A stretch of 64,000 nucleotides of DNA from an uncultured Alphaproteobacteria bacterium. Lineage in GTDB: Bacteria > Pseudomonadota > Alphaproteobacteria > Rhizobiales > Rhizobiaceae. The notes under the pieces were generated by a model, which searched no databases, had not been told where the DNA came from, and was given only the letters and a program-made list of their open reading frames with translations. Location: the NCBI GenBank assembly GCA_963822365.1, contig CAWGHM010000009.1, positions 338,181 through 402,180 on the forward strand, read 5' to 3'. This document shows positions 2,637 to 42,483 of the stretch, in pieces. The position numbers were made by a program, and so were the translations under genes. Numbering within the stretch: position 1 is the first letter of the stretch; every line of letters begins with the position of its first letter.

Positions 2637-2671
2637 ACGGAGACAGCCGTCCCCTTCACCGCAACCGAAGC

Positions 2672-3949: not shown

Positions 3950-3968
3950 GCCGGCACGGCATGCACGC

Positions 3969-4874: not shown

Positions 4875-4946
4875 ACTGTCCTGTCTTGAATGGTCACGCG
4901 TTGCTGGCTGCGGGCGCTCTTGATCGCCGCAAAAACCATGGCAAGG

Positions 4947-5930
4947 CTATGAATATTGTCGCTGCTGGCCGTTTCCGGCTCGGATCCATCGCGGATAGCG
5001 GTCGATGAAATCCAAGATGACGCTGGCATGGCCGTGCGTCTGCGCGTCATCGGCCAGTGGCGGTACATCGACGGGCTCCAGGTCGCGCAGGAAGCCGTCC
5101 GTGCCGATGACGCGATGTGCCTGGAATGTGTCCGCACCGTCCCAGAGGAGGGTGCCTTTCGTGCCGATGATGCGCCACTGGCTTTCCCAGCTGGTATTGG
5201 CGCCCTCGGCACACCACGAGCCGCGATAGGTGAAGGTCACGTCGTCGGAGAATTCGAAGATCGCATTGGCAGCCGCATCGCGACCATACCACGATCCCTT
5301 CGGGTTGCTTTCCTGGCAATAGACGGCAAGCGGCGTCTTGTTGGCGACGAAACGCGCAGCATCGAACGTGTGGATTGCCATATCGAGCAGAAGAACATTG
5401 TCCATCGCCTCGCGGAAACCGCCGAAATGCGCACCGATGAAGAAGTCGCAGTGAATGCCCGTCAATTCGCCAATGGCGCCGCTTTCAAGAAAGGCCCGCA
5501 TGCGGCGGACACCGGAAATGAAGCGCCTGTTCTGCACCACGGCATGAATGCGGCCGGCCTTCTCGGCGCGAGCAACAAGATCACGGCCCTCCTCCAGCGT
5601 GACCGCCATCGGCTTTTCACTCAAGACATGGCAACCCAGACGCAGACCGGTCGAGACGACGCTGTGGCGGGCAGTCGGGATGACGACATCGAAAACAATA
5701 TCGGCACTGGTCTTTTCAAGCACGGCTTCGAGGTCGGAACCGATCACGACATCTTTCAACTGGAAGGCTTCGGCAAGATCTGTCGCCGCCTGCGGATTGA
5801 CATCCACAAGCCCGGCAATGCGCACGGCCGATTGTAACCCTGGGGTTTCCGCGATCGCCTTCAGCCATCCTTTGGCCATAGCTCCGCACCCGCATAAAAC
5901 AGCGTTTAAAATGGGATTCTCCTCCTGCAA
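4947..5930 (-). CDS. Gfo/Idh/MocA family NAD(P)-dependent oxidoreductase
   Basis: 327-aa intact ORF. N-terminal Rossmann motif LNAVLCGCGAMAKGWL. Typical partner of sugar isomerases in inositol/sugar catabolic loci. Confidence 0.85.
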   Translation of the reverse strand: MQEENPILNAVLCGCGAMAKGWLKAIAETPGLQSAVRIAGLVDVNPQAATDLAEAFQLKDVVIGSDLEAVLEKTSADIVFDVVIPTARHSVVSTGLRLGCHVLSEKPMAVTLEEGRDLVARAEKAGRIHAVVQNRRFISGVRRMRAFLESGAIGELTGIHCDFFIGAHFGGFREAMDNVLLLDMAIHTFDAARFVANKTPLAVYCQESNPKGSWYGRDAAANAIFEFSDDVTFTYRGSWCAEGANTSWESQWRIIGTKGTLLWDGADTFQAHRVIGTDGFLRDLEPVDVPPLADDAQTHGHASVILDFIDRYPRWIRAGNGQQRQYS

Positions 5931-6052
5931 AGCTTACGGATTTCACTCCTACCCGATTTCCGTAAACGTTTACGGTACTATGCGGCATTTTCGAAACGTG
6001 TCAATAGAAATTAGAACCACGCACTGTTTGGGGATGGGAGAGAGACCGAAGC

Positions 6053-7090
6053 ATGAAGGGAATTCGCCGGCTTGCGCAGCATCTCGATATCTCGATCGGA
6101 ACCGTTTCGCGCGCGCTGAATGGCCGCCCGGATGTCAATGAAGAAACCCGCAAACGGGTGCTGGAGGCGGCTGTCGAACTTGGCTACGTCCCCAATCAAT
6201 CCGGCCGCAGCCTGCGCCAGGGAACGACCAACACCATCGGCCTGATGATGGAATCGAGCGCCCAAACCGTTGAAAACAGCGATAACTTTTTCATGGGCGT
6301 CGTGGATGGCGCGCAAGGTGTCTTCGCCCGTCACAAGCTCGACCTCATTCTGCTGCCGTGTTCGACCGATGAGGATCCGAACGCCTATCTGCAACGCATC
6401 GTCGCCCGCCGCCTCGTCGATGCCATGATCATTTCCGCGACCCGGAAAATCGACAAACGCATTGACCTGCTCGAAAAGGCGAAAATTCCGTTCATCGCGC
6501 TGGGACGCAGCGAATCCGGGCACAATCCGCCCTGGCTCGATCTGGATTTCGAGGGCGTGGCCAGCCGGGCGATCGACAGGCTGGTCGCTCGCGGCCATCG
6601 GCGCATCGCGATTGCGGTCCCGCACAACGAGGCCAATCTCGGCTATATCTTCCTCGACGGATACAAACAGGCCCTGGCACGACATGGCCTGGCCTTCGAT
6701 CCGGACCTGGTCATCCGCACCAGTTCGAGCGAACAGGGCGGCTATTTCGCGGCGGACGAACTTTTGCGCTCCGGCAAGCAGCCGACGGCAATCCTCCTGA
6801 TCTACGAGGTCATGGCGATCGGGCTTTACCGTCGATTGGCGGAAGCCGGCATACATGCCGGCCGGGACTTTGCGGTGATCGGCTTTCGCGAAAGCCCGCA
6901 GTCGCGCTTTCTGTCGCCACCTTTGACCTGCTTCCGGCTGTCGCTGCGCGACCTCGGCATTGCGTTGGCGGAATCGCTGCTCGCCTCCATGCCCAGCTTC
7001 AAGCACCACTATCCACAGACGCCGGCCCACAGGATCTGGCCGATGGAACTTGTCGAGGGTGAAAGTGATGCCTTCGAGCTACCGGCCTGA
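6053..7090 (+). CDS. LacI family transcriptional regulator
   Basis: N-terminal HTH (IRRLAQHLDISIGTVSRALNG) plus periplasmic-binding-protein-like sugar-binding domain. Divergent from the oxidoreductase gene. Confidence 0.9.
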   Translation: MKGIRRLAQHLDISIGTVSRALNGRPDVNEETRKRVLEAAVELGYVPNQSGRSLRQGTTNTIGLMMESSAQTVENSDNFFMGVVDGAQGVFARHKLDLILLPCSTDEDPNAYLQRIVARRLVDAMIISATRKIDKRIDLLEKAKIPFIALGRSESGHNPPWLDLDFEGVASRAIDRLVARGHRRIAIAVPHNEANLGYIFLDGYKQALARHGLAFDPDLVIRTSSSEQGGYFAADELLRSGKQPTAILLIYEVMAIGLYRRLAEAGIHAGRDFAVIGFRESPQSRFLSPPLTCFRLSLRDLGIALAESLLASMPSFKHHYPQTPAHRIWPMELVEGESDAFELPA

Positions 7091-7160: not shown

Positions 7161-8492
7161 ATGCCGGGTCCACCTCTTGATGTAGCTGAAACAGACCGCA
7201 GTCTGCCGACCAAGGCGGATGTCGTCATTATCGGTGGCGGCATCATCGGTGTCAGCACGGCCCTCTTCCTGGCGGAGCGCGGCGTCGATGTGGTGTTGTG
7301 CGAAAAAGGCGTGCTCGGCGGCGAACAGTCCAGCCGCAACTGGGGCTGGGTCCGCGTCATGGGCCGTGACCGACGCGAAATCCCGCTGGCAATGGAATCC
7401 CTGAAAATCTGGGATGGGCTCGATGCCCGCGTCGGCGGCGAGACCGGCTTTCGCCGTTCCGGCATTCTTTATCTTGCGCAGACTGACAAGGAAATCGCCA
7501 ACCAGGAAAAATGGCTGGTACACGCAAGGGCCAACGGCCTCGACAGCCGTGCGATCGGCAGCGACGAAACGCACGCCCTGATGCCGGGTGCCGTCACCCG
7601 CTACAAGGGTGCGATGTATACCGCGAGCGATGCCCGTGCCGAGCCGCAGAAAGCGGTTCCGGCGATTGCAGGCGGTGCGCGTCGGGCCGGTGCGAGACTG
7701 GTCATCGGCTGTGCCGTGCGCGGCATCGAAAGAAGCGCCGGGCGGGTTTCTGCAGTGATTACCGAAAAGGGACGCATCGAGACGTCCGCTGTCGTTCTGG
7801 CTGGCGGTGCCTGGTCGCGGCTCTTCTGCAAGGGGCTGGGGCTGCGTCTGCCGCAACTCAAGGTGCGCAACTCCGTCCTGCGAACCAGCCCGGTCAGCGG
7901 CGGACCGGATGGCGCCGCGGCGGACTGGACCTACGCCTATCGCAAGCGCCTGGATGGTGGTTACACGATTGCCCACAGCGCCGAGAACCTGCACGCGCTC
8001 GTGCCGGACAGCCTGGCATTCTATCGAGAGTTCCAGCCGGCCCGCAAGGCAGAGGCAGACAGCGTGCAAGTGGGGTTCAGCGCCCGCAGCTGGCAGGAAC
8101 TGTGGGAGATCGTATCGCCGCCGCTGGACCGGCCGGGCGCATTCGAGAAGCACCGCATTCTCGACCCCAGGCCCGACGAGCGCTCTGCCCTTTCGGCCCT
8201 CAAGGCCGCCATGGACGCAATCCCTGCCTTGAAGGGCGCCAGGCCGCTGCAGATCTGGGGCGGGCTGATCGACGTTACGCCCGACGCCGTGCCGGTCATC
8301 TCGTGCATCGACGCTGTCCCCGGCCTGACGATCGCCACCGGGTTCTCCGGTCATGGGTTCGGCATTGGTCCGGGTGCCGGGCATCTGACCGCCGATCTGG
8401 TGATGGGCCGCACGCCGATCGTAGACCCGCAACCGTTCCGCTTCTCGCGTTTTTCGGATGGCTCACCGATCGAGATCGCACCCTCCGTCTGA
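7161..8492 (+). CDS. FAD-dependent oxidoreductase (DAO/DadA/PuuB-like)
   Basis: 443-aa intact ORF. GXGXXG FAD motif VVIIGGGIIGVSTALFLAERG. Confidence 0.8.
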   Translation: MPGPPLDVAETDRSLPTKADVVIIGGGIIGVSTALFLAERGVDVVLCEKGVLGGEQSSRNWGWVRVMGRDRREIPLAMESLKIWDGLDARVGGETGFRRSGILYLAQTDKEIANQEKWLVHARANGLDSRAIGSDETHALMPGAVTRYKGAMYTASDARAEPQKAVPAIAGGARRAGARLVIGCAVRGIERSAGRVSAVITEKGRIETSAVVLAGGAWSRLFCKGLGLRLPQLKVRNSVLRTSPVSGGPDGAAADWTYAYRKRLDGGYTIAHSAENLHALVPDSLAFYREFQPARKAEADSVQVGFSARSWQELWEIVSPPLDRPGAFEKHRILDPRPDERSALSALKAAMDAIPALKGARPLQIWGGLIDVTPDAVPVISCIDAVPGLTIATGFSGHGFGIGPGAGHLTADLVMGRTPIVDPQPFRFSRFSDGSPIEIAPSV

Positions 8493-8502: not shown

Positions 8503-9498
8503 TTACCAATTCAGGGCAGCAGTGGCAACGGGCGCATCCCACAGGGTCGTCAATGCGTCGTCGAGCAGCGTCACCGTAATCGACATGCCGGCCATGTCGA
8601 GCGATGTCGCATAGGTGCCGACAAGCCTGCGGGAAATAACGAGGCCACGCTCTTCGAAAAAGCGCCGGGCAAGGCCAAACATGACGTAGAGCTCGGAGGG
8701 CGGTGTTCCGCCAAGGCCATTGACGAAGAGCAGGATGCGCTGCCCTGCGGCCGGCGCCAGATCGGCGAGTATCTGGTTGCAGACCATCGCAGCAATGGCG
8801 GATGCATCGGCAATCTTCTGGCGCGAGCGACCTGGCTCGCCATGGATGCCGACACCAATCTCCATCTCATCCTCGCCAAGCGCGAAGGTCTCCCGCGTTA
8901 TCTGCGGCACCGTCGCGCCCCGCAAGGCAACCCCCATGGTCCTGGTCGCGGCAATGGCTGCTTCACCGACTTTCGCCAGCGCTGCGAGATTGGCGCCAGC
9001 CTCGGCCGCAGCACCGACAAGCTTCTCGACAATGAGCGTACCCGCAACGCCGCGACGTCCGGTACCGCGCAGGGTCCGCTCGATGGCGATGTCGTCATTG
9101 ACGATCAATGTTTCGATCCGGTGTGAACCCGCCGCCACGGCCATCTCGGCCGCCATTTCGAAATTCATCAGGTCGCCATCATAATTCTTGACGATCAGCA
9201 GCACGCCCGCGCCATTGTCCGCCTCCTGGATGGCACTGAGGATCTGATCCGGCGTCGGTGACGTGAAGACATGCCCCGTACAGGCGGCATCCAGCATGCC
9301 CTTGCCGATAAAGCCGATATGCATCGGCTCGTGACCGGCTCCACCACCGGCGATGACGGCGACTTTTCCCGGCGTGAAGACCCGGCGACGAACATGGTTT
9401 CGTCCCTCTCCGAACGAAACGAGATCATCATGCGCAGCAACGAACCCCTCCAGGCTGTCGTTGGCCAGCGATGCCGCATCGTTCATGAATTTCTTCAT
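8503..9498 (-). CDS. dhaK: dihydroxyacetone kinase subunit DhaK (PTS-dependent type)
   Basis: 331-aa intact ORF. Conserved DhaK motifs (GGGAGHEPMH, LLIVKNYDGD). Confidence 0.9.
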   Translation of the reverse strand: MKKFMNDAASLANDSLEGFVAAHDDLVSFGEGRNHVRRRVFTPGKVAVIAGGGAGHEPMHIGFIGKGMLDAACTGHVFTSPTPDQILSAIQEADNGAGVLLIVKNYDGDLMNFEMAAEMAVAAGSHRIETLIVNDDIAIERTLRGTGRRGVAGTLIVEKLVGAAAEAGANLAALAKVGEAAIAATRTMGVALRGATVPQITRETFALGEDEMEIGVGIHGEPGRSRQKIADASAIAAMVCNQILADLAPAAGQRILLFVNGLGGTPPSELYVMFGLARRFFEERGLVISRRLVGTYATSLDMAGMSITVTLLDDALTTLWDAPVATAALNW

Positions 9499-9591
9499 CG
9501 ATCTCCCCCGGAGACGATCCTATCCAGCCAAGCGAAATTTGCCAGCCCGGCCCCGGATTTGGCCCCTCCGAAAACCACGGCAGCCCGCATT

Positions 9592-10002
9592 CTAATCCGC
9601 CTCGCGCGAAAGGGAGACGATTTTCTGGATGAAATCCTGGATGGCCTCGTCGAGCATCTGGTTCTTCTTGTCGTCTCCGAAATCGGCGACCATCAACGTC
9701 AACTGCCGCAATCCGGCGGCATGGCCGAGATCGGGCAATTTGCCGGGATGGGCGAGTTGGTAGGCATCGAGAAAACGATCCTGCTCGCCCTTGCTGACGT
9801 GGCAGACCTGGAAGATCGTCGCAAGGTGTCTGGCTGGCAGCGGCGTCGCATAGCCAGGGCTGGTGATCTGGGTGACAAAGCTGCGATGTTTGCCAAGCGC
9901 CGCGGCCAGCCGTTGGCGCGTTCCCGACGGACGGTTGTCGATGATGGCCGCAAGGATTGCCTTATAGGCGGTGATCGCATCCTCGTTTGCGTCGCGCGCC
10001 AT
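9592..10002 (-). CDS. hypothetical small protein with putative HTH, embedded in the dha operon
   Basis: 136-aa ORF, co-directional and tightly packed between dhaK and the EI gene. Segment RQRLAAALGKHRSFVTQI resembles an XRE-type HTH. Confidence 0.45.
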   Translation of the reverse strand: MARDANEDAITAYKAILAAIIDNRPSGTRQRLAAALGKHRSFVTQITSPGYATPLPARHLATIFQVCHVSKGEQDRFLDAYQLAHPGKLPDLGHAAGLRQLTLMVADFGDDKKNQMLDEAIQDFIQKIVSLSREAD

Positions 10003-10003
10003 G

Positions 10004-11567
10004 GTCAGCTTCCCGTCTTTGCAAGATGAAGCGCTGTCTGTAGAGCCTCAAGCTGCTGAGGGGCAACGGAAAACTGTGTGAGACCGCAGGCCAGCAGATC
10101 GGGCAATGCCTCCGGCATGCCGGCGAGATCGCCGCAGATGCCGATCGGCTTGCCCATGTCCAGAGCCATTGCCACCGTCTGCCGGATCGAGCCGCATCAG
10201 AGCCGGCAGCGTCCGGTCGTGAAGGCTGGAAACCGCACCGCTGTCTCGGGCTGCAGCGCTCAGATATTGGGCGAGATCATTGGTGCCCAACGAGAAGAAG
10301 TCGGCATCCACGAAAGTGTCGAGCATCAACGCTGCCGCCGGAACCTCGACCATCATGCCGATCTCAGGCATGCGCGCCGCGACATGCCGTCGTGAAAGCC
10401 CCTCTGCCTCTTCTGCAAAGATGCGCCGCGTCTCTGCGATCTCGGATGCAACCGTTACCATCGGCAGCATCACCTTGAGATTTCCAAGCACCGCAGCCCG
10501 CAGCAGGGCACGCGCCTGCACCCGCAACAGATCCGGATGCGCCAGAAGCAGGCGAATGCCCCGCATGCCCAGAAACGGATTGCGTTCGGTATCGCCAAAC
10601 CCGCCAAGCGTCTTGTCACCGCCCAGATCCAGCAGGCGCACCGTGACCGGTCGCTCGCCGGCCCACTGCAGGACCTCGCCATAGAGACGATATTGCCGCT
10701 CCTCATTGGCAAGATCGGCGACGGACGCCATCAGGAACTCGCTGCGCAGCAGGCCGATGCCGGCGCAGTCCGCATTGACCGCCGCAAGCTCCGAAGGATG
10801 GCCGATATTGATCAGGCAGGTCAGGCCGTTCTCGATTGTTGACATCCGACGGCAAGCGGGCATCGGCCGGGATCGCGCCCATTGATCCTTCCGATCGCAA
10901 GGCTGCGGCAATATCCACATCTGCTGGCTCGACGAGAACGGCCCCCTGACTGCCATCGACCATCAGCCGCATGCCGTTTTCAACCGGGAATGGTCCGAGG
11001 CCGACGACCATGGGCACCGAACGGGCCCGGGCGAGCAGGGCAACATGGCTCACGAGACTGCCCGCGCTCAAGGCGATGCCGCCCCCCCTCCAGTCGTGGG
11101 ACAAGAAAAGGCTGGGACCGATATCCGCACCGACGAAGATCGATCCAACGGGAAAATCGTCCGCCTTCGTGCCGTTCAGCACATCAAGAACCCGATTGCG
11201 CATGTCGATCACATCGACGGCTCGCGCACGGATATCGTCATCATCAGAGCTTTCAAAGCCGGCAATATAGTCTTCCAGTGCAGCGACCCAGGCCAGAACG
11301 GCGCCCGCACCGGCATCCGCCCGATCAGCGCCCATCTCGCAAATGACAGGATCGGAGAGCATTTCCACCTGAAACTCGAGAACCGTTGCGGCTGTGCGGA
11401 TCCGAAACCGCCATCAGGGCCTGTAGATCGCCAATCGCCGTTTCAATTGCCGATGCCAGCATTTGATGATCACCGGCATGAAGAGCAGAGGCGGCCGCCA
11501 CGAAAGGAGCTGGCCCGATATATGCCGGCCCGACGGCTGGGCCGATGCCATTGCCCTGCCCGCGCAT
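10004..11567 (-). pseudogene. ptsI: PEP-protein phosphotransferase enzyme I (PtsI-like, DhaM phosphorelay); at least 3 frameshifts
   Basis: Four overlapping minus-strand ORF fragments together reconstruct EI: N-term GIGPAVGPAYIG; phospho-histidine domain GSLVSHVALLARARSVPMVVG; PEP-utilising TIM barrel LGTNDLAQYL; C-term GKPIGICGDLAGMPEALPDLLACGLTQFS in a third frame ending TGA 10004-10006. Confidence 0.75.
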
Positions 11568-11568
11568 G

Positions 11569-11931
11569 TCACGTATTCCGGGCATGTGACGCGTCCGCGC
11601 CTTTATCGGCGACCTCTCCGAAATCACTGGCAAACAGCGCTTCCAGACTGAAAATTGCCTCTTCGGCACGCAGGCCATGGGCGCGGATGCGCAAAGTCGA
11701 TCCCTTGCGGATGCGGGCACCCATGACCTTGACGATGCTCTTTGCACTCAGCCAGAGGCCGGAGCGATTGACCTCGATCTCGATCGTGCAGGGAAAGCTT
11801 TTCGCAAGCCGCGTAAACAGAACCGAGGGACGGGCGTGCAGGCCCACGCCGTGGGAGATCAGCAGCTCGGTCGACGCCGCCGACCCGGCGGACGAGACCT
11901 CCCCTTGCAGCCCCTGGCCTTTTTCCCTCAT
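11569..11931 (-). CDS. HPr-like phosphocarrier protein (DhaM HPr domain)
   Basis: 120-aa ORF with the HPr signature GLHARPS. ATGA overlap with the upstream EIIA gene. Stop is 1 nt before the EI start. Confidence 0.7.
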   Translation of the reverse strand: MREKGQGLQGEVSSAGSAASTELLISHGVGLHARPSVLFTRLAKSFPCTIEIEVNRSGLWLSAKSIVKVMGARIRKGSTLRIRAHGLRAEEAIFSLEALFASDFGEVADKGADASHARNT

Positions 11932-12326
11932 GATGGCGAAAGCTCCTCGGCAGTCGCCACGACCCGCGCCAGCGATGCGCCGCCCGAGGCTTCGGCCGCC
12001 GCCATCACCGCACCTTCGACGATCGGGGCATTGCAGATCGTGATCAGGGCCGAACGCGGCGCACCAATCGCCTCGACAGCCATCTCGCTGTTGGTTTCCG
12101 CACCCCCGAGATCAACGAAGATAGCGACACCGGCATCCGACCAGGCATCCTCGATCGCCTGAAGGATCGCGGCCATGTCGGTGCCCAGGCCACCGACCGG
12201 ATTGCCGCCGCACCAGGCAAGCGGCACGCTGTCGCCGACCATCTGGCGAACCATATCGGCGGCCCCCCTGGCGATCAGCGGCGAATGAGACACGATGACG
12301 ATGCCGACATTCCTGGTGGCACTCAT
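11928..12326 (-). CDS. dhaM: PTS EIIA (mannose-type) dihydroxyacetone kinase phosphotransfer subunit
   Basis: ORF 11928..12380. Likely start MSATRNVGIVIVSHSPLIARG (ATG 12326) overlapping the dhaL stop. EIIA-Man fold motif IVSHS. Confidence 0.7.
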   Translation of the reverse strand: MSATRNVGIVIVSHSPLIARGAADMVRQMVGDSVPLAWCGGNPVGGLGTDMAAILQAIEDAWSDAGVAIFVDLGGAETNSEMAVEAIGAPRSALITICNAPIVEGAVMAAAEASGGASLARVVATAEELSPS

Positions 12327-12961
12327 GCGCTGCATCCTTCGTGCAACGCGCGGCAGACCGCCGCAACCAGCAGCGCGCAACTCGCGGCCCCCGGATCCAT
12401 GTGACCGATAGACCGCTCGCCAAGAAACGAAGCGCGTCCGCGCATCGCCTGCAGGGGAACCGTCCTGTCTGCAAACGCGGATGCCATGTCCGGCAGCACT
12501 TCGACAACGTATTCTTCAGCCAGCAGATCATTGAGCGGATAGAGGACGTCGAGCAGCGTCTTGTCACCGCGTGCTGACCTGCCGCGTTTGGCCACCCCGT
12601 CCACAGCCTGCTGGAACGCAGTCGGAAACCTGTCGAACAAAATGCCGCCGTCCAGCGCTTTGCCGAGCTCGATCAGAAAGGTGCCATAGAGCGGGCCTGA
12701 TGCCCCACCGATTGTCATGACGAGGATACGCCCGGCCTCGGCAAGGGCTTCGGCAAGCGGCAGGGCGTCGAGCCGTGCTTGCGCGGCAACCAGCGCGTCC
12801 CAGCCGCGCAGCATGTTCGTTCCGTGATCCCCGTCGCCTATGGCACAATCAAGTCCGTTCAGGCGATCCATATGGGTGGCGATTTCCGACCGGCAGGCCT
12901 CGATCAAGACCCCGATCGACACGGCCGCAGGCGCCTGGACAATCTTGAAGACAGCGTTCAT
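12323..12961 (-). CDS. dhaL: dihydroxyacetone kinase subunit DhaL (ADP-binding)
   Basis: 212-aa intact ORF. DhaL motifs (DGDHGTNM, GGASGPLYG). Confidence 0.9.
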   Translation of the reverse strand: MNAVFKIVQAPAAVSIGVLIEACRSEIATHMDRLNGLDCAIGDGDHGTNMLRGWDALVAAQARLDALPLAEALAEAGRILVMTIGGASGPLYGTFLIELGKALDGGILFDRFPTAFQQAVDGVAKRGRSARGDKTLLDVLYPLNDLLAEEYVVEVLPDMASAFADRTVPLQAMRGRASFLGERSIGHMDPGAASCALLVAAVCRALHEGCSA

Positions 12962-14604
12962 GCGGGCTCCAGAGCGCCGGCAAGCGCTGCAAAGACCTGT
13001 GCCACCGCATGGGCGCCGGGGTCCATCACACCATCAAGTTCGCGCTCTGCGATATAGGCCGAGCGACCGGCTTTGGCCTTGCGCATCGACTTCGTTGCCT
13101 CGGCCCCTTTCGCCGCGGCTGCGGATGCCGCCTGATAGCCGCCGGATGCCAGGGCCAGAAGAGCCGGTTCCAGCGCATCGATCATGGTGCGGTCGCCGGG
13201 CTTTGCGCCACCATAGAAGGTCATGCGTTCCAGCCCCGAAAGCAAAGCCGCAGCCATGTCGCCCTTTTCCGCCTTCGCCTTTCCGGCCGCCGTGAAGAAG
13301 ATGGACAGGAGAACACCACTCGATCCGCCCATCACGGTCCCGAGCGTATCGCCGATCACGGCCAGAAGGGCAGCAGGATCGGCGAGCGGCAGCCGGTCCT
13401 TCTGCGCAAGAATGCTGCGCGCGCCCGTCGCCACCGTCGAGCCGGTATCGCCGTCTCCGGCTTTTGCATCCAGCCGGTTCAGCTCCGTCTCAATCGCGAT
13501 CAGGCTTTCGCAAACCGTCGTCAACACCTTCGCGGCCAGCACATCCTCGCTTGCGGACACCTTTTGTGAAGCGGTCGGCATGGCCGGTGCCGGCAGGATC
13601 GCCACGTCATGGACCTTTACCGGCGGCACCCAGGCATGCGGCGCAACAGGCGCGCTCAGGGCTTCTTCCCGTGCTGCATCCAGCCGGATCAGCGACAGCG
13701 AGAAACCGTTCATGTTCAGCGCCGTCATCAGCGGCGCCGGCCCGATGGTCAGCGCGATACGCTTTGCAAAAGGCGAAGAGAGGACAGCATTGGCGATCAG
13801 CGTCATTTCCACCGGCGGCACGGCGCCGAGATTGTTGATCAACAGGCCGTAGCGCGCCTCAGCCTCCATGGCGGCTGCAAGCCGCTCCGTCATGATCGCC
13901 ACAATGTCATCCGCCCGCTGGACAGCGATCCGCTCGACGCCCGGCTCGCCATGAATACCAAGGCCAAGCTCGCCCTCCTGCGGCCCGAGCCGATCCTCAT
14001 ACTCCTGACCCGGGATCGAGCAGGAGGAGTAGGAAACACCGAGCGAAACGATTTCACCGGCCGCTGCCCGAGCCGCAGCGGCGACGTCGGCAAGGGACTT
14101 CCCGCCTTCAGCCAGATAACCGGCAATCTTGTGGACGAAAAGCGTCCCCGCGACGCCGCGCGGTTGGTTGATATCGGGCAGCGCGATGTCATCTGCAACG
14201 ATGACCATCTCGACATCGAAGCCCTCGGCACGGGCCTTTTCCGCAGCCAGACCGAAGTTCAGCCGGTCGCCGGTGTAGTTCTTGACGATCAGCAGGCAGC
14301 CCGGCTCGCCCGTCACGGCACGGATCGCGGTCAGAACCGCATCGACGCTTGGCGACGCAAAGATTTCCCCTGAAACCGCCGCAGTCAGCAGACCCTTGCC
14401 GACGAAGCCGGCATGGGAAGGCTCGTGCCCGGCACCTCCGCCGGAAATCACCGCAACGCGGGATCTGTCCCAGTCGGCTCGAACGATCACCTTGATGTCA
14501 GGATAGCTGTCGAGGCGGGCCAGCATACCCGCCGGTGCAGTCCGCAGAAGCCCATCGAGCGCTTCAGTGACGATGTTTTCCTTGCTGTTGAAGAAGTGTT
14601 TCAT
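12958..14604 (-). CDS. ATP-dependent dihydroxyacetone kinase (fused DhaK-DhaL domains, Citrobacter DAK-like)
   Basis: ORF 12958..14703. Homology-consistent start MKHFFNSKENIVTEALDG at 14604. Both the DhaK (GGGAGHEPSH, LLIVKNYTGD) and DhaL (DGDTGST) domains are intact. Confidence 0.85.
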   Translation of the reverse strand: MKHFFNSKENIVTEALDGLLRTAPAGMLARLDSYPDIKVIVRADWDRSRVAVISGGGAGHEPSHAGFVGKGLLTAAVSGEIFASPSVDAVLTAIRAVTGEPGCLLIVKNYTGDRLNFGLAAEKARAEGFDVEMVIVADDIALPDINQPRGVAGTLFVHKIAGYLAEGGKSLADVAAAARAAAGEIVSLGVSYSSCSIPGQEYEDRLGPQEGELGLGIHGEPGVERIAVQRADDIVAIMTERLAAAMEAEARYGLLINNLGAVPPVEMTLIANAVLSSPFAKRIALTIGPAPLMTALNMNGFSLSLIRLDAAREEALSAPVAPHAWVPPVKVHDVAILPAPAMPTASQKVSASEDVLAAKVLTTVCESLIAIETELNRLDAKAGDGDTGSTVATGARSILAQKDRLPLADPAALLAVIGDTLGTVMGGSSGVLLSIFFTAAGKAKAEKGDMAAALLSGLERMTFYGGAKPGDRTMIDALEPALLALASGGYQAASAAAAKGAEATKSMRKAKAGRSAYIAERELDGVMDPGAHAVAQVFAALAGALEPA

Positions 14605-14677
14605 CGCATTCATCCAGTCTGTTTTCGAGCAGGCATCCTTTCCGCTGGCGGCAAGGAAAGCAATCGCGTGTTGGGCA

Positions 14678-15689
14678 TCACAGCAGACGCTGCCCGTCCG
14701 CACCGAAATAGAGCGGATCCTTCAGCGTCAAGGTAATATTGTCGCCGGGCTTGACCGGGACGTAAGGGTTGGCCAACGTGACCAGCTTGTGACCGTCGAT
14801 GCGCAGATGCAGATGGCTCTGGTCGCCCAGATGCTCGATCCAGTCGATCTGGGCATTGGCATTGCCGTTTGCCGCGTTGATTTCCAGATGTTCCGTGCGG
14901 GCACCGATCGTCCGCGTTCCCGCAGGCGGCTCCACACCCGGCACGAGCCCGGCCGGAATGAGGTTGATATGCGGCTGACCCAGCCGCGCCGCCACGTGAA
15001 GATTGGCCGGATTGCTGTAGATTTCCCGAGGCGTGCCGACCTGCACAAGCCGGCCGCCATCCAGAATACCGATACGATCGGCCATGGTCATGGCTTCGAT
15101 CTGGTCATGGGTTACGTAGAGCAGGGTCGAGCCCAGCTCGCTCTGGATGCGCTTCAGTTCCAGCCGCAATTCTCCGCGAAGCTTGGCATCGAGCGACGAA
15201 AGCGGTTCGTCCATCAGGTAGATCGCCGGCTTTCGCACCAGCGCCCGGCCGATCGCCACGCGCTGCATCTCCCCGCCCGATAACCGGGTCGAGCGGTTTT
15301 CCAGCTTGTGGTCGATCCGGACCATCTTTGCGACCTCGCGAACCCGCCGGTCGATCTCGTCAGCGGCCATCCGGCGGGCCGGCGAACGCAGCGGAAAAGC
15401 CAGGTTCTCGTACACGGTCAGGTGCGGATAGAGCGAATATTGCTGGAAGACAAAGGCAACGTCGCGGCTGGCCGGCGCAAGGCTCGCCATATCCTGGCCG
15501 CCGATCGTGACGCGGCCCTTGTCCGGCCGCTCCAGCCCGGCGATCAGCCGAAGCGTTGTGGTCTTTCCGGCCCCCGTCGGACCGAGCAACACGACGAACT
15601 CGCCGTCGCGAATGGTCAGCGTCAGCGCGTCGACGGCCTTGTTGTCCCCGAAGGACTTTCGAGATGGATTGCAGCGAAACCTCAGCCAT
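14678..15689 (-). pseudogene. ABC transporter ATP-binding protein (UgpC/MalK-like, first of tandem pair); +1 frameshift at ~15655
   Basis: True start MAEVSLQSISK (ATG 15689) lies in a different frame from the body SFGDNKAVDALTLTIRDGEFVVLLGPTGAGKTT...LSGGEMQRVAIGRAL. The junction tcgAAAgtcc has one extra A relative to an in-frame reading. Confidence 0.8.
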
Positions 15690-16781
15690 GACGGGCCTCC
15701 GTGTGAAGCGAGGACGGAACGGCGCGACCGGAGGCGCATTCGAAGAGCGACAGCTTTTCGCTGTTGAGTTCCAGGCCGACCGTTTCGCCGATCCGGAATG
15801 TGCGATCCGCCGACACGCGGGCCTTGAGCAGCCCCTTGCCCGTCTCGACAGCAACGATCTGGTTGGTGCCGAGATATTCCGCACCATAGACAGAGCCGCG
15901 CAGAGCCGAGCTATCGTTGAAGCGGATATGCTCCGGCCGTACGCCAAGCGCCAGTTCGCCCGGCGCCAGATCCTGATGCACCTCCGGAAGGCCGATCTCC
16001 ACGCCCTCCAGCGAAACCGAGCGCGCGCCCTTGCTGTACGCCTGCGGTGAACTTGAGGAAGTTCATCGGCGGCGAGCCGATGAAGTCTGCGACATACATG
16101 GAGGCCGGACGATTGTAGATTTCCTGTGGCGTACCGAACTGCTCGATGATGCCGTGGTTCATCACGGCGATCTTGTCGGCCATCGCCATGGCTTCGTGCT
16201 GGTCATGGGTAACGTAGACAGTCGTCGCATGGATGCGGTTGTGCAACTCGCGCAACTCATGGACCATGACCTCGCGAAATTCGGCATCCAGCGTACCGAG
16301 CGGTTCGTCCATCAGGAAACATTTCGGCCGCCGCACGATCGCCCGCCCCAGTGCCACGCGCTGCCGGTCGCCGCCGGCAAGACCCGAGACGGACTTGTCG
16401 AGGATATGGCCGATCTGCAGGAGCTTTGCCGTTTCCTCGACGCGCGCCCTGATCTCCGCCTTCGGCACGCCCTGGCTCAGCAGCGGAAAGCCGATGTTCT
16501 TGCGCACGTTCATGTGCGGATAGAGCGCAAACAGCTGGAACACGAAGGCGATGTCGCGGGCGCTGGCCCGGTTGAAGCTCACATCCTCGCCATCGAGAAA
16601 GATCTGGCCGCTGGTCGGCAGTTCCAGTCCGGCAATCATCCTGAGCGTCGTCGTCTTGCCGCAGCCGGATGGTCCAAGCAGCGCCAGGAACTCGCCATCG
16701 GCCACGGTGAAACTCGAATTCCTGCACGGCGACGAATTCACCGAAGGCCTTGCGCAGATTTTCGACCCTGATCTCCGCCAT
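15682..16781 (-). pseudogene. ABC transporter ATP-binding protein (UgpC/MalK-like, second of tandem pair); 2 frameshifts
   Basis: Start MAEIRVENLRKAFGEFVAV (16781) in one frame. Walker A body FLALLGPSGCGKTT...LSQGVPKAEI...YVTHDQHEAMAMADKIAVM in a second frame. C-terminal TOBE domain VEIGLPEVHQDLAPGELALGVRPEHIRF in a third (ORF 15682..16002). Confidence 0.8.
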
Positions 16782-16989
16782 GATCTACTCCGGAAATTTC
16801 GAGACGATGATGAACATCACGGTCCCGGCGAGAAGCGTGAGCCAGCGAATAGGTGTAGAGCACCAGCGCGAATGGCTGGAACAGCATCAGGAATCCAAGC
16901 CGCGATCAAGGCGGTGGCGAGGTTCTCCATCGGCCCGCGCCGCAGAAAGAATGGCACGTTTGGGCTTTGTGGGGGTGTGTTTTCCTGCG

Positions 16990-17950
16990 TCATTTGCGGA
17001 CCGCTCCGAAGGTGATGCCGCGCAGGAGTTGCTTGCGCAGAAGAATGGTGAAGACGAGGATCGGCACGAGGAAGATCGTCGTTCCCGCAGCCACCGCCGG
17101 CCAGTCCTGCCCGCCCTCGCCGATGATCGTCGGAATGAAAGGCGGAGCGGTCTGGGCCGATGCCCGAGGTCAAGCAGAACCGCGAAGGCATATTCGTTCC
17201 AGGCAAAGATCAGGCAGAAGATCGCCGTTGCCGCAATGCCGGTGGTCGCCTGTGGCAGCACGACCTTGAGGAACGCCTGCAGCCGCGTATAGCCGTCGAT
17301 CATCGCCGCTTCCTCATACTCGCGTGGGAATTTCGTCGATGAAACCCTTGAGCAGCCAGACGGCGAGCGAGACATTGACGGCGGTGTAGAGCAGGATCAT
17401 GCCGAGCGCCGTGTCGGACAGGCCAAGCTCGCGATACATGAGATAGATCGGGATCGCGACGGCGATCGGCGGCATCATGCGTGTCGACAGGATGAAGAAC
17501 AGAAGATCATCGGCCAGCGGCACCTTGAAGCGCGAGAACCCGTAGGCCGACAGCGTGCCGAGGAAGACGGCAAGGAAGGTCGAGCCGAAGGCGATGATCA
17601 GCGAGTTCTGGAAGCGCGGCCAGTAGTTGGATGCACCGGCGATCACCATGTTGCGGTTGCGGGTGATCTCGTCGCAGGTCGAGACTGCGGCGCCCCGAGC
17701 GACTGGATATATTCCGGCGTCTGCCGGGTCCGCGTCGTGAACAGGTTGCAATAGCCCTCCAGCGTCGGCTGGAAGACGATCTTCGGCGGATAGCTGATGC
17801 GAATCCGGTGGCGACTTGAAGCTGGTCAGGAAGATCCAGGCAAGCGGCACCATGGTCATCGATCGCATAGAGGATGACGATCGCCCCGGCGATGCGCTTG
17901 GACGTGTTGCTCGGTTCGACGACAGAATGGGCTGTGTTCGCGGCGCTCAT
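16990..17950 (-). pseudogene. carbohydrate ABC transporter permease (UgpE/MalG-like); at least 3 frameshifts
   Basis: Fragments MSAANTAHSVVEPSNTSKRIAGAIVILYAI (start 17950), MVPLAWIFLTSFK...IPIYLMYRELGLSDTALGMILLY, EAAMIDGYTRLQAFLKVVLPQATTG and C-term ...TFGAVRK-stop (TGA 16990-16992) lie in different minus frames. Confidence 0.75.
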
Positions 17951-18923
17951 CGTTGTTTCACCTTGTTCAGCGCTTTGACATAGATGTTGGCGAGACCAAA
18001 GACGGCAACGAAGAGGATGATGGCAAAGGCCGAGGCCCGGCCCGTGCGCCAGCTTTCGAAGGCCTCGCGCTTCAGCGTGATGGAGGCAACCTCGGTGGTC
18101 GAGCCCGGTCCGCCACCGGTCAAAAGCACCACCATGTCGAACATCTTGAAATTTTCGATGCCCCGGAACAGCACGGCCAGCATGATGAAGGGCAGCGCCA
18201 TCGGCATGGTGATCGACCAGAACTGCCGCCAGGCCGACGCGCGGTCCACTTCGGCCGCCTCGTAGATATAATCCGGGATGGAGCGCAGACCGGCAAGGCA
18301 GATCAGCATCACATAGGGCGTCCACATCCAGGTATCGACGATGATGATGGCCCAGGGCGACAGCGTGCACGGAACCGAGCATTTCGAAGGAGGACGGCTC
18401 GATGCCGGTGAAGAAGGAATACGATGTAGTTGAACAGGCCGATCTGCGGCTGGTAGAGAAATCGCCAGAAATTGCCGACCACCGCCGGCGACAGCATCAT
18501 CGGGATGAGGATGACGGTCGTCCAGAAGGCATGGCCGCGAAACTTGCGGTCGATCAGATAGGCCAGCGCAAAGCCGATCAGCATCTGCAGAAGGATCGTC
18601 CAGAAGACGAAATGCGCAGTCGTCTGCATCGCCTGCCAGATGTCGGGATCGTTCAGAACGCGTTGGTAGTTCGAAAGCCCGACGCCTTCGATTTCGGCAT
18701 TCGGCCGGTTCGCCCGGAAATTCGTGAACGAGAGATAGACCGCCCAGATCAGCGGGAAGATATTGATGGCCAGAAGCAGCACGATCGTCGGCAGGATGAA
18801 AACCCAGGCAATCGAGCGATCGGACAGGCCGCGGACACGGTACACAAGCGGCACGGGCGTTGCCCGTACGGCCTTATCCGCGGCCTTGTCCAGAACAGTT
18901 GAATTGGTATCGGTCACGGGCAT
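17947..18923 (-). pseudogene. carbohydrate ABC transporter permease (UgpA/MalF-like); frameshift near 18320-18400
   Basis: N-terminal fragment MPVTDTNSTVLDKAADK...IFPLIWAVYLSFTNF (ORF 18309..19001) and C-terminal fragment IPDYIYEAAEVDRASAWRQFWSITMPMA (ORF 17947..18327) are in different frames. Confidence 0.75.
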
Positions 18924-19014
18924 CACCTGGCACGAAGAAAAGGCGAAAGAAGAAACGGCGCGTCGAGAAACGGCCGCCCGGCTTTCAAACCGGGCGACCA
19001 TTCCGGGAGGATGT

Positions 19015-20334
19015 CAGAGTTTCCCGTCGTCTTCGAAGACTTCCGTCCAGTCCTTGACCAGTCCGTCCAGCGCTTCCTTGGCCGTGCCCTGATCGGCGAC
19101 CACGTAGTCGTGCAGGCGCTTCTGCGTGGCCTGCAGCAGGATGGCGTAGGACGGTTCCTGCCAGAAGTCCTGGACCTGGTTCATCGCGACCAGGAAGTCG
19201 GCCGCAAAGGGCTGGCTGTCCTTGAACGATCGGATCGTTCAGCACGGCATTGTGCACGGCATAACCGCCAAGCGACCACCACTTCTTCTGAACGTCGGGC
19301 TGGGCGAACCATTTGATGTAGGCCAGCGCGCCATCCATGTTGTCGGTATTGGCAACAACCGAGATGCCCTGCCCGCCAAGCGTCGAGGCATTGGATCGTG
19401 CCCTTCGGATTGTCGAAGAAGCCGATCTTGTCGCCGCCGACATTCTCATCCTTGGCGAGGCCCGGGAAGAAGGCAAACCAGTTCATCGCCATCGCCGACC
19501 TGTCCGGATTTGAACGCGTCAAGGTCTTCGCCCATATAGGCGTCGGTATAGCCCGGCGGCGTGCAGCACTTGTAGAGTTCCTTGTATTCCTCCAGTCCCT
19601 TGACGGCCTCGTCGGAATTCACGGCGCCTTCCATGTCATACTTGCCCGGCGTCATTTCATACTTGAAACCATAGGCATAAAGCGCCGCGTGGCGCCCATG
19701 GTGATGCCTTCCGAAGCGCGCTCGGTGAAGATCGCCGCGCCATAGACCTTCTTGCCGTCGATATCGCTTGCCATTGAAGAACTTCGCGGTTTCGAGCAGT
19801 TCCGTGCCAGGTCGTCGGCGGAGCGAGATCGCGACCGGTCGTCGCCTTGAATTCGGCCTGGATTTCCGGCTTGGAGAACCAGTCCTTGCGATAGAACCAG
19901 GCATTGGCGTCGCCCATGGCCGGCAGCGCCCAGTAGTTCGGCGTGCCCTTCGGCCAGGTCGAATAGGCATTCACCGCGGCCTGTGCGAAATCGCTCATCT
20001 TGATCCCTTCCTTGTCGAAGAAATCATTGAGCTTGACGTAGTAACCGTTTTCGGCCGAGCCGCCGAGCCACTGGCTGTCGCCGATCAGCAGATCACAGAG
20101 TTTGCCGCCGGAATTGAGTTCGTTGAGGATGCGATCGGCGAAGTTCGGCCACGGCACGAATTCGAATTTCATCTCCGTGCCGGACTGCGCCGTGAAATCC
20201 TTCGACAGTTCCACAAGCGCGTTTGCCGGATCCCATGCTGCCCAGCACAGGGTGAGTTCGGCCGCCTGCGACACACCTGCCGAAAGCGTCAGCGCCGTTG
20301 TTGCTCCCAGGAGAGCCTTGGTCATTTTCCGCAT
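19015..20334 (-). pseudogene. carbohydrate ABC transporter substrate-binding protein (CUT1 family); at least 4 frameshifts
   Basis: Signal peptide MRKMTKALLGATTALTLSAGVSQA (start 20334), then SBP body scattered over ORFs 19657..20400, 19446..19970, 18985..19476. A fourth frame ends ...WTEVFEDDGKL-stop (TGA 19015-19017). Confidence 0.75.
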
Positions 20335-20682
20335 GTATTCCTCCCAGATACAGAAGCAGGCACCACGCCGGCTTCGGGAATTCCATTTTCCGCACAGCAT
20401 GGCCCCGGTTCAAAAGGGCGCAAAGCTGCGCGACTGCCATCCACCGGGGCCGCCACCAAACCTTACAATTTCACCTGAGCTCCCCGCCCTTCGCCCGACG
20501 GCCAAATCTCGCCGTGTTGAGCAATATGTTTAGTGATATTTATTTTACTCAACATGACAAGAGGCAATCGTTGCTGCACCGCAACCATGCCGCAATGGCT
20601 TGTTGAGAATGATTTCCCGGAAAAAACAAAATCAATCGACTAAACAAATAGTTCAGAGAATGGACTGTCGTGAGCATGCGCA

Positions 20683-20720
20683 AAACAAAAAAATCCCCGA
20701 ACGCGACAAGCGTTCGGGGA
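20683..20720 (-). terminator. rho-independent terminator downstream of purU (stem CCCCGAACGC / GCGTTCGGGG, then U-tract on minus strand)
   Basis: Perfect 10-bp GC-rich stem at 20695-20719. The minus-strand downstream sequence reads ATTTTTTTGTTTTG. Confidence 0.7.
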
Positions 20721-20760
20721 TTTCACAATGTCAGGCCATCGACGATGCCGAAGCGCCGGT

Positions 20761-21646
20761 TCAGCCCATGCGTTCGGAGGCGTAGGAGCCGGGGCTCGCC
20801 GGGAAGACGACGGTGCGGTTGCCGTTGATGAAGGTCCGGTTGTGGATATGGGCATGCACGGCGCGGGCCAGAACCTGGCTCTCGACGTCGCGACCGATCG
20901 AGACATAATCCTCTGCAGACTGCGCATGGGTGATGCGGGCAATATCCTGCTCGATGATCGGGCCTTCATCGAGATCGGCCGTAACGTAGTGCGCTGTCGC
21001 ACCGATCAGCTTCACGCCGCGCTCATAGGCCTGCTTGTAGGGGTTGGCGCCCTTGAACGACGGCAGGAACGAGTGGTGGATGTTGATGATCTTGCCGGAC
21101 ATCTTCTGGCACATGGAATCCGACAGGATCTGCATGTAGCGGGCCAGCACGATCAGTTCGGTTCCGGTCTGCTCGACCACGTCCATGATGCGGGCTTCGG
21201 CCTGAACCTTGTTGGCCTTGGTCACCGGGATGTGGTGGAACGGAATGTCGTGATTGACGACGACCTTCTGATAATCGAAGTGATTGGACACAACACCGAC
21301 GATCTCGATCGGCAGCGCGCCGATCTTCCAGCGATAGAGCAGATCGTTGAGGCAGTGACCGAAGCGCGACACCATCAAGCAGCACCTTCATGCGATGCTC
21401 GCTGTCACGGATGTCGGCATTCATGCCGAAGCGGGTCTTGACGGCTTCGAAGCCTTTTTCAAGCGTCTCGAGCGAAGCGCCCTCCTGGCTGATAAAGGTG
21501 AGGCGCATGAAGAACAGACCGGTTTCCAGATCGTCGAACTGCGAGCTGTCTGTGATGTAGCAGCCCTCGTCCGCCAGATAACCGGTGATCGCCGCGACGA
21601 TGCCGCGGGTGGATTTGCAGGAAACGGTCAGCACATAGCTCTTCAT
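20761..21646 (-). pseudogene. purU: formyltetrahydrofolate deformylase; one frameshift near 21370-21430
   Basis: N-terminal ACT domain MKSYVLTVSCKSTRGIVAAITGYLADEGCYI (ORF 21023..21697). Formyltransferase domain ...VVSNHFDYQKVVVNHDIPFHHIP...SFLPSFKGANPY (ORF 20761..21378) is in another frame. Confidence 0.8.
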
Positions 21647-21808: not shown

Positions 21809-23122
21809 TCAGATATCGAGCGTCGTCTGCCGCTCCCATTCGGTAAAGTGGGAACAAAAGGTATTCCACTCGCCATGCTTGAGCTTGAGGTAGGCGGCGG
21901 AGAATTCCGTCGCCCAGCGCCGCCTGAAGCTCGGTGTCCTTGTCGTATTCGCGCAGCGCGTCGAGCAGGTTGAGCGGCAGCTTCGGCGCGTCCTTGACGG
22001 TGTGGCCGTGCTGGTACATGTCGATGTCGTAGCGCGGCCCGGGATCGGCCTGCGGTGCGGATGCCGTCGAGACCGGCCGCGATGATGATCGCCTGCAGCA
22101 GATAGGGATTGACCGCGCCGTCCGGCAGGCGCAGTTCGAAGCGGCCGGGACCCGGCACGCGGACCATGTGGGTGCGGTTGTTGCCGGTCCAGGTCACGGT
22201 GTTGGGCGCCCAGGTGGCGCCGGAGATGGTGCGCGGCGCGTTGATGCGCTTGTAGGAATTGACCGTCGGATTGGTGATCGCGGCCAGCGCCGAGGCATGC
22301 TTCATGATGCCGCCGAGGAAGGTGCGGCCCTTGGCCGACAGGCCGAGCTCGCATGCTCTTGTCGGCGAAGACGTTGATCTTGCCGTCGACTTGTCCCAGA
22401 CCGAGATATGGGCATGGCAGCCATTGCCGGTCAGGCCCTTGAAGGGCTTGGGCATGAAGGTGGCGCGCAGGCCGTGCTTCTCGGCGACCGACTTGACCAT
22501 GAACTTGAAGAAGGAGTGCTTGTCGGCGGTGGCGAGCGCGTCGTCATACTCCCAGTTCATCTCGAACTGGCCGTTCGCGTCCTCGTGGTCGTTCTGGTAG
22601 GGCTCCCAGCCGAGCTCCAGCATGTAGTCGCAGATTTCGGCGATGACGTCGTAGCGGCGCATCACCGCCTGCTGGTCGTAGCAGGGCTTCTCGGCGGTAT
22701 CGGACTCGTCGGAAATCTGCGTGCCGTCCGGCGAGATCAGGAAGAATTCGGACTCGACGCCGGTCTTGACCCGCAGGCCCTCGCCGGCGGCTTCCGCGAT
22801 CAGCCGCTTCAGCATGACGCGCGGCGCCTGTTCGACGGGCTTGTCTTCCATGACGCAGTCGGCCGCGACCCAGGCGACATCCGGCTTCCACGGCAGCTGG
22901 ATGACGCGAGTCGGCATCGGGCACGGCGAACAGGTCGGGATGGGCCGGCGTCAGGTCGAGCCAGGTGGCGAAGCCGGCAAAGCCGGCGCCGTCCTTCTGC
23001 ATGTCGGCGATCGCCTGCGCCGGCACCAGCTTGGCGCGCTGGCCACCGAACAGGTCGGTGTAGGAGATCATGAAATATTTGATGCCACGCTCCTTGGCGA
23101 AGGCGGCAAGATCGATTGTCAC
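21809..23122 (-). pseudogene. gmaS: glutamine synthetase family protein, candidate gamma-glutamylmethylamide synthetase; at least 3 frameshifts
   Basis: N-term MTIDLAAFAKERGIKYFMISYTDLFGGQRAKLVP (ORF 22544..23122). Catalytic core ...KPFKGLTGNGCHAHISVWDK...NPTVNSYKRI (ORF 21652..22917). C-term ...EFSAAYLKLKHGEWNTFCSHFTEWERQTTLDI (ORF 21809..22354) in a further frame. The GS next to NMG synthase genes implies the NMG pathway. Confidence 0.7.
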
Positions 23123-23211
23123 TGTGTTCCCCTTTGGATTATTCAGACACTTTTTCGTGGAAAGGCCGCTACCTGTCTTGGGAGATCAGGCAACGGCCAG
23201 ATTGTGCTTGG

Positions 23212-24545: not shown

Positions 24546-24557
24546 GGCTGTCCCGCC

Positions 24558-25249: not shown

Positions 25250-25289
25250 CGCTTCCAGACTTTCTTGTCTTAGACTGACATTCACGTTC

Positions 25290-30180: not shown

Positions 30181-30190
30181 GGACCTGATC

Positions 30191-40809: not shown

Positions 40810-42483
<1,674 letters not shown>

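Follow-up and report, generated by a model that had tools for sequence, protein, structure and literature searches.

Is an operon that joins a transporter to two kinds of dihydroxyacetone (DHA) kinase being dismantled in a member of the Rhizobiaceae, or has its sequence been misread? The question is raised by positions 8503-20334, minus strand, of a 64,000-nucleotide stretch (the window) of contig CAWGHM010000009.1 (positions 338,181 to 402,180 of the forward strand; assembly GCA_963822365.1) from an uncultured alphaproteobacterium. A sequence-only reading saw here one co-directional operon for a transporter of the ATP-binding cassette (ABC) class and of CUT1 type, an ATP-dependent DHA kinase and a second DHA kinase fed from phosphoenolpyruvate (PEP) through a phosphotransferase system (PTS); it found the transporter and Enzyme I (EI) frameshifted and proposed that, if the frameshifts are real, the uptake system and the PTS branch are in decay, with the ATP kinase spared. 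The answer favoured here, with a probability of about 0.8, is that the locus represents, in this genome, an operon conserved widely among alphaproteobacteria and read from sequence with many one-base insertion errors. From the alignments the frameshifts are most likely a patchy, window-wide technical artefact, because genes with up to six of them show no relaxed constraint, insertions exceed deletions by 99 to 6, and the damage spreads into unrelated neighbours.

The gene series and its control region

Three-frame translation, Pfam, NCBIfam and tblastn searches using the proteins annotated on plasmid p1 of Sinorhizobium sp. B11 bear out the gene order that had been proposed, read on the minus strand from 20334 to 8503; the series is genuine and far exceeds chance. 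The importer half opens with the gene for a CUT1-type substrate-binding protein (SBP; 19014..20334, 441 amino acids (aa) in relatives) and continues through two BPD_transp_1 permeases (permease 1, 17947..18917; permease 2, 16990..17950), a small membrane protein gene (16785..16993) and two ABC ATPases, the first UgpC/MalK-like (15682..16781, 365 aa in relatives) and the second with ABC_tran and TOBE_2 domains (14678..15689). There follow a fused Dak1-Dak2 kinase of 548 aa (12958..14604), the ADP-binding subunit DhaL with its Dak2 domain (12323..12961), a DhaM-type EIIA(Man) domain protein of 133 aa in which the IVIVSHS histidine is kept (11928..12326), an HPr-family phosphocarrier of 120 aa in which the GLHARP histidine is kept (11569..11931), a full-length EI (10005..11567, ~510-526 aa in relatives), a conserved 136-aa protein (9592..10002) and, last, the 331-aa DHA-binding subunit DhaK (8503..9498). 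The fused kinase, DhaL, the EIIA protein, HPr, the 136-aa protein and DhaK are intact as they stand.

Neighbouring genes had been described as overlapping or lying a few nucleotides (nt) apart throughout, which holds for nine of the 12 junctions, these being ATGA/GTGA-type overlaps or gaps of at most 3 nt, and fails for three larger gaps: SBP-permease (~95 nt), ATPase 2-kinase (73 nt) and 136-aa-DhaK (93 nt). Upstream of the series lies a purU-like gene (Formyl_trans_N and ACT domains), closed by an intrinsic-terminator-like hairpin with a 15-bp stem and a T run (20690..20724, minus strand) that forms the operon's upstream boundary.

How unusual is such an arrangement? A species-representative scan, with one genome per species, provided a sample of 80 loci. 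The full 13-gene series is present in the same order in ~70 of them, each gene as one full-length match, and that order is intact in Rhizobium, Pararhizobium, Sinorhizobium/Ensifer, Neorhizobium, Mesorhizobium and Phyllobacterium; the comparison of synteny with related dha loci that had been suggested as a check has in this way upheld it in ~70 species. The nearest relative of the locus is that of Rhizobiales bacterium AFS086343 (L003 in the sample), at 83% nucleotide identity. The cluster is annotated gene by gene in GenBank by the Prokaryotic Genome Annotation Pipeline (PGAP), and it is an ordinary member of a conserved, annotated and functionally unstudied operon family; the literature searched turned up no substrate, regulator or physiological role for the operon.

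Does one promoter serve it all? An AT-rich block at 20515..20561 (minus strand), ~200 nt upstream of the window SBP start, recurs in 77 of the 77 loci that have upstream sequence. In the window it consists of CTTGTC (-35-like), 17 nt and TATCAC, with the overlapping half-sites TGTTGAG ... CTAAACA ... CTCAACA; across the loci the shared form is a -35-like CTTG, a -10-like TATCAC 17 nt on, and half-sites TGTTTAG-N19-CTAAACA-N5-CTAAACA. A sigma-70 consensus scan returned no minus-strand promoter, and the proposal that the block acts as a promoter/operator, which we infer from sequence, is made because it is conserved across species. A stricter form of the pattern occurs exactly once in 65 of 76 loci and leaves the other 11 unmatched.

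The check for internal promoters or terminators that might divide the transporter from the dha genes found no second copy of the block inside the cluster (stricter pattern, 76 loci) and no convincing terminator between the two sets of genes; terminator-like sites within the operon number 6 against 10.7 expected, which is fewer than chance, and shuffled sequence folds as well as the ATPase 2-kinase and 136-aa-DhaK gaps do. In Bradyrhizobium diazoefficiens USDA110 a blr7984 mutant shows co-induction, by 4- to 24-fold, of all 12 genes of the cluster blr3566-blr3577, and in bacteroids all 12 are co-repressed (PMC5017801). With that co-regulation, the conserved 13-gene order and the single upstream block, the operon interpretation, and with it the claim of one co-directional transporter-dha unit, is supported.

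The SBP-permease gap holds a perfect 17-bp GC-rich hairpin (18967..19004, minus strand), and a GC-rich hairpin lies at this place in 18 of the 18 related loci listed (from L004-L079), with a stem sequence that varies between genera. It is likely an mRNA-stabilising or attenuating element, a typical feature of ABC operons in which the binding protein is produced in excess over the membrane components, and it does not part the transporter from the dha genes. The 5' leader (window 20335-20514, minus strand) runs to ~200 nt in the Pararhizobium group and to ~110 nt in other genera, and carries a semi-conserved hairpin directly ahead of the ribosome-binding site (GAAGCCGGCGTGGTGCCTGCTTC); the leader has no match in Rfam, whose one match over 8-21 kb, to the purU terminator hairpin, is below threshold.

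Two variations in the series may be recorded separately. Eight Phyllobacterium species (L021, L028, L033, L041, L045, L065, L068, L073) are cleanly without EI only, with ~70 nt from HPr to the 136-aa open reading frame (ORF), and this variant presumably relies on another EI. The synonymous divergence (dS) between the window and L003 climbs along the operon, from ~0.35-0.6 in the transporter genes to ~0.7-1.4 in the dha genes, and the fastest-evolving proteins of the cluster are DhaL and EI. A recombination mosaic was considered as the cause of the lower transporter dS and rejected, since the intact pair L003-L006 has an equal gradient; the gradient appears in intact pairs generally (L003 versus L006, L005 and L009) and is therefore a property of the clade.

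Importer, kinases and a candidate regulator

What would such an operon do? The whole unit would be driven, as one transcript, by the single promoter/operator upstream of the SBP gene. A triose-like substrate would be imported unphosphorylated by the six-part ABC importer and trapped as DHA phosphate by two routes, one spending ATP through the fused, Citrobacter-type kinase and the other passing phosphate from PEP through EI, HPr, DhaM and DhaL-ADP to the DhaK-bound substrate, while the 136-aa protein would sit at the promoter half-sites as putative regulator of the operon. The flow of substrate in this scheme is conditional throughout; what it is drawn onto is observed, namely which genes are present, the order in which they are conserved, catalytic motifs that are intact and one conserved control region upstream.

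The importer has the parts of a CUT1 system: an SBP of SBP_bac_1/8 type, two BPD_transp_1 proteins, and ABC_tran + TOBE_2 ATPases whose best models are UgpC and MalK. Where CUT1 systems usually have a single ATPase gene, whose product forms a homodimer, there are here two adjacent paralogues with ~48% mutual identity, and the two ATPases and the small membrane protein are kept in all relatives. The N-terminus of the apparent 353-aa ORF of ATPase 2 is spurious. In intact relatives the small ORF specifies ~65-71 aa with two predicted transmembrane helices and a conserved VSKFPE end; it matches no Pfam family, and a DUF2160 label for it was dropped on that account.

Within Pararhizobium there are two types of SBP, at ~67% and at 87-89% identity to the Sinorhizobium sp. 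B11 protein, one group comprising L003, L005-L008, L011, L015 and L018 and the other L004, L009, L010, L012 and L013. Between L003 and L009 the identity is 68% for the SBP, 84% for permease 1 and 93% for permease 2. Two SBP types on otherwise conserved permeases suggest replacement of the binding protein, possibly with a different ligand preference.

The two kinases and the phosphotransfer proteins are more readily placed. DhaK passes the NCBIfam equivalog TIGR02363 at 415.2 bits against a cut-off of 406.25, scores 415 bits for that catalytic equivalog against 249 for the DhaQ coactivator model, and keeps the equivalents of the Escherichia coli residues His56, Asp109 and His218 (its H56, D109 and H219 in alignment to 4LRX). 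DhaL reaches 187.1 bits with TIGR02365 (cut-off 138.3) and has in its translation the motif AIGDGDHG, with the GDGD of the nucleotide/Mg site, and DhaM reaches 132.4 bits with TIGR02364 (cut-off 98.25). EIIA, HPr and EI are separate genes, and EI, in the window and in relatives, is full-length with all three PEP-utiliser domains. In bacteria whose PTS is otherwise a regulatory one only, a dedicated EI and HPr make sense. The fused kinase has the Pfam domains Dak1 and Dak2 and matches the Citrobacter freundii enzyme (1UN8/1UN9) with an E-value of 5e-164 over residues 3-543; as judged from these comparisons its family assignment is safe and its exact substrate equivalence is not.

The imported compound is plausibly triose-like, and DHA is its most plausible identity. 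Might it instead be a compound other than DHA or glycerol, be it a larger sugar or a different small ketose or aldose (erythrulose or glyceraldehyde, for example), with the two kinases then serving different substrates or isomers? Dak-family kinases acting on erythrulose are known, the SBP is without an informative relative and its nearest solved structures bind disaccharides, the fused kinase falls under the glycerone-kinase equivalog cut-off, and two strongly diverged SBP types (~67-71% and 87-98% identical to the Sinorhizobium sp. B11 protein) stand on conserved permeases. Such a substrate is possible rather than probable, given a DhaK that clears the DhaK equivalog cut-off and retains the hemiaminal histidine, a fused kinase homologous over its full length to the DHA kinase of C. 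freundii, and an only characterised importer of equal six-part make-up that carries glycerol (PMC7912956).

The 136-aa protein had been called a small helix-turn-helix (HTH) ORF. That description finds no backing in domain searches (no Pfam or NCBIfam hit and no HTH family profile) and some in the predicted fold, which resembles XRE/Cro proteins. There are 553 homologous proteins, and among the best 120 nearly all are 'hypothetical', two bear a regulator name and none has a Pfam domain. An AlphaFold2 model built with 34 homologues (mean pLDDT 81.7) has an N-terminal domain predicted to be an XRE/Cro-like HTH, and its top Foldseek matches in the PDB are nearly all XRE/Cro proteins, among them lambda repressor, C.Esp1396I and other restriction-modification controllers, and XRE regulators. 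The fit is ~3 Å root-mean-square deviation over ~76 residues, with probability up to 0.99, target TM 0.6-0.7 and all E-values at or above 0.35. On this model the protein is likely an HTH regulator, and probably it binds the conserved promoter half-sites.

Is the cluster then more than the sum of familiar parts? It could be viewed as an uncharacterised 'ABC-plus-PTS' module, with ABC import, a private EI/HPr/DhaM chain from PEP and, in the 136-aa protein, a new dha regulator that would act at the TGTTTAG/CTAAACA operator and is possibly controlled by DhaK/DhaL, for which DhaR and DhaS, regulators under Dha-protein control, offer a model. We regard this as a tentative suggestion, with the odds against it. 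Still more doubtful is the proposal that the PEP branch is mainly a sensor, in which DhaK/DhaL/DhaM would signal the presence of substrate to the 136-aa protein while the fused ATP kinase would carry out phosphorylation in bulk. Its models are DhaR of E. coli and DhaS/DhaQ of Lactococcus, and it has some appeal: the gene for the XRE-like protein always lies between those for EI and DhaK, a conserved operator marks the single promoter, and two kinases for one substrate within one operon appear redundant. It is rendered unlikely by the Bradyrhizobium cluster, which by its annotation is without the fused kinase and where the PEP branch must be the catalytic route, and by a DhaK that scores as catalytic equivalog over DhaQ coactivator; the protein-protein contacts that it calls for are hypothetical.

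Insertions in and around the operon

The survey of insertions and deletions (indels) took in 38.1 kb of the window aligned to four relatives, the aligned parts being within 2676-42480, with 44-57 kb and 59-64 kb left out. Scoring by codon usage and by GC content at third codon positions could not separate real from antisense frames in the GC-rich window DNA, and reading frames were judged by homologue-guided alignments in its place. Alignment with L003 reveals 24 indels of lengths other than a multiple of three in 8503-20334, nearly all of them single extra window bases. The SBP gene has six (~19805, 19766, 19687, 19498, 19395 and 19227), permease 1 two insertions (18422, 18367), permease 2 six (17860, 17799, 17686, 17326, 17171, 17160), the small ORF two (16899, 16841), ATPase 1 two (16725, 16033), ATPase 2 one (15661, ~codon 9) and EI four indels (11383, 10866, 10842, 10189); one is intergenic. 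The transporter and EI are frameshifted, as had been claimed, and the damage is wider than the claim allowed, reaching the small ORF, ATPase 2 and at least 12 unrelated genes.

Those genes, at 21.4-42.2 kb, are broken by the same +1 insertions, as are a few more at 2.7-7.1 kb. Outside the operon the broken genes are purU, glnT, the genes for an FMN-dependent glutamate synthase and a GXGXG protein, soxB, soxD, soxA, hutC, hutI, hutH, hutG and hutU, and frameshifted genes are located at 20764-21646, 21812-25250, 28926-33440 and 34808-42480. These neighbours have roughly 70-98% protein identity to relatives in well-aligned segments, and purU, directly upstream of the operon, is frameshifted despite 98% protein identity to L003. 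The tally is 88 insertions of one base and 11 of two, against five one-base deletions and one of two bases. Of the 88 single inserted bases, 69 (78%) are C or G and only 15 are the same as an adjacent base.

The insertions come in patches 1-7 kb long, at about 10.2-11.4, 15.7-19.8, 21.4-25.8, 29.4-32.8 and 35.4-42.2 kb, and the clean stretches between the patches also span the unrelated GlxA, an XRE regulator, soxG, hutF and hutD. Neither do patches respect gene boundaries: ATPase 2 has its one insertion in the first 30 nt and is then clean for ~980 nt, and soxA and hutU are likewise clean towards their ends, over the final 227 and 111 codons respectively.

If the genes were pseudogenes, how would their remaining sequence look? 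With the extra bases removed they were compared with L003, the intact pair L003-L006 serving as control. The five large transporter proteins share 94-96.5% identity with those of L003, with a ratio of nonsynonymous to synonymous divergence (dN/dS) of 0.04-0.06 and 0 in-frame stops in ~1,770 codons; the small ORF (61 codons) has 87% identity, dN/dS 0.15 and no stops, and EI 75% identity, dN/dS 0.16 and no stops. Gene by gene the control pair is near-equal (for the SBP, identity 0.971 against 0.963 and dN 0.016 against 0.017), and purifying selection on the genes equals that in intact relatives. Relaxed selection, in the form of raised dN/dS or in-frame stops, is not seen, nor are lesions that are of mixed kind and confined to decaying genes.

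Could the lesions nevertheless be real throughout the genome, in a lineage that has recently become host-restricted or is a mutator and has gathered many fresh frameshifts? At least 19 genes are frameshifted over ~40 kb, and an identical protein from the source organism is not on record elsewhere. It is a very improbable account, because 6-10 insertions per gene with neither relaxation of dN/dS nor a nonsense codon call for an implausibly recent burst of insertions only, mismatch-repair mutators typically affect homopolymer runs, which the scarcity of insertions matching an adjacent base does not resemble, and deletions and insertion sequence (IS) elements are essentially absent. Selective decay, with real frameshifts, uptake and EI genes turned into pseudogenes, and the ATP-dependent kinase, DhaK and DhaL retained by selection, is scarcely credible, even though the SBP, permease, small-ORF, ATPase and EI genes account for all 23 of the intragenic frameshifts, with DhaK, DhaL, DhaM, HPr, the fused kinase and the 136-aa ORF free of them, and EI loss does occur naturally in the eight Phyllobacterium species, since the identical insertions in at least 12 unrelated neighbours, the clean patches over unrelated genes, the patch edges within genes, the lack of stops or nonsynonymous excess beyond the control pair in genes with up to six frameshifts, and an insertion excess opposite to the deletion bias expected of bacterial pseudogenes all speak against it.

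Some observations pull away from a conserved operon read with insertion errors. The origin of the insertions in error is inferred rather than observed in reads. They are uneven, the chance of zero in 4.3 kb at the mean rate being ~1e-5, and a non-technical cause of the patchiness is conceivable. No exact match to the window DhaK or fused kinase was present in the protein collection. On the functional side, the nearest solved relatives of the SBP are of trehalose/maltose type, binders of disaccharides (E 1e-19), and no NCBIfam model names it; the fused kinase lies slightly below the NCBIfam glycerone-kinase equivalogs (540 against 574.95 for TIGR02361 and 454 against 492 for NF011049); and the regulator assignment depends on Foldseek matches with E >0.1. 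A conserved operon read with insertion errors remains the preferred account, and it has a practical side: calls of ORF integrity anywhere in the window are unreliable, and the seeming disappearance of uptake and EI beside a retained ATP kinase, as a probable sequence-quality artefact, should carry no weight as an evolutionary story.

Surroundings and known systems

Beyond DhaK, a FAD-dependent oxidoreductase of the DAO family (window 7161-8492, plus strand) is convergent with dhaK, with ~10 nt between the stop codons, and is outside the synteny aligned with Pararhizobium antarcticum (L006). Window 1-7090, which is syntenic with that species, holds another CUT1-type sugar transporter (an SBP and two permeases) together with a LacI regulator, a TIM-barrel protein that resembles xylose isomerase and a GFO/IDH/MocA oxidoreductase, the last with insertions at 5002 and 5929.

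What is new here is the conserved promoter/operator, the XRE-type candidate for the 136-aa ORF and the conserved hairpin after the SBP gene. The operon is widespread in plant-associated alphaproteobacteria, with its Bradyrhizobium version strongly regulated between the free-living and the bacteroid state, and a conserved operator together with a candidate XRE-like regulator gives concrete handles on the import substrate and its control.

How then does it compare with systems already described? Closest are the orthologous clusters annotated in Rhizobiaceae and Phyllobacteriaceae, among them that of Sinorhizobium sp. B11 plasmid p1 (LVY75_05920-05980), whose 13 genes agree with those of the window in kind, order, orientation and style of junction; its genes are all intact and their proteins 49-94% identical to those of the window, whereas the flanks differ, being mug and an aldehyde dehydrogenase there and purU and the FAD oxidoreductase here. 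The blr3566-blr3577 cluster, whose likeness to the window is by annotation only, is annotated in the order SBP, two permeases, small hypothetical protein (bsr3569), two ATPases, DhaL-like protein, EIIA-Man, HPr, EI, hypothetical protein and DhaK, without a fused ATP-dependent kinase between ATPase 2 and DhaL.

For the importer the counterpart is GlpSTPQUV of Rhizobium leguminosarum VF39, a glycerol importer made up of an SBP, two permeases, a small membrane protein and two ATPases (Ding et al. 2012, per PMC7912956). The window importer matches this six-part composition, a likeness by description only. GlpSTPQUV adjoins glpK, glpD and glpR, whereas the window importer adjoins dha genes, and Pfam detects no glp genes in the window locus. 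In L065, inspected for a glp-type transporter alongside, the locus ends within it.

For the kinases, the ATP-dependent DHA kinase of C. freundii (PDB 1UN8/1UN9) resembles the 548-aa protein of the window over its full length, the difference being that the window gene is set within a transporter/PTS operon. With E. coli DhaKLM the cluster shares catalytic residues and the DhaK, DhaL and EIIA-type DhaM domain models, which the window proteins also pass. In E. coli, however, DhaM is one fused EIIA-HPr-EI(N) chain served by the general EI and HPr and the regulator is DhaR, whereas the window has a dedicated and separate EIIA, HPr and EI, a small XRE-like protein as candidate regulator in the place of DhaR, and an ABC importer attached.

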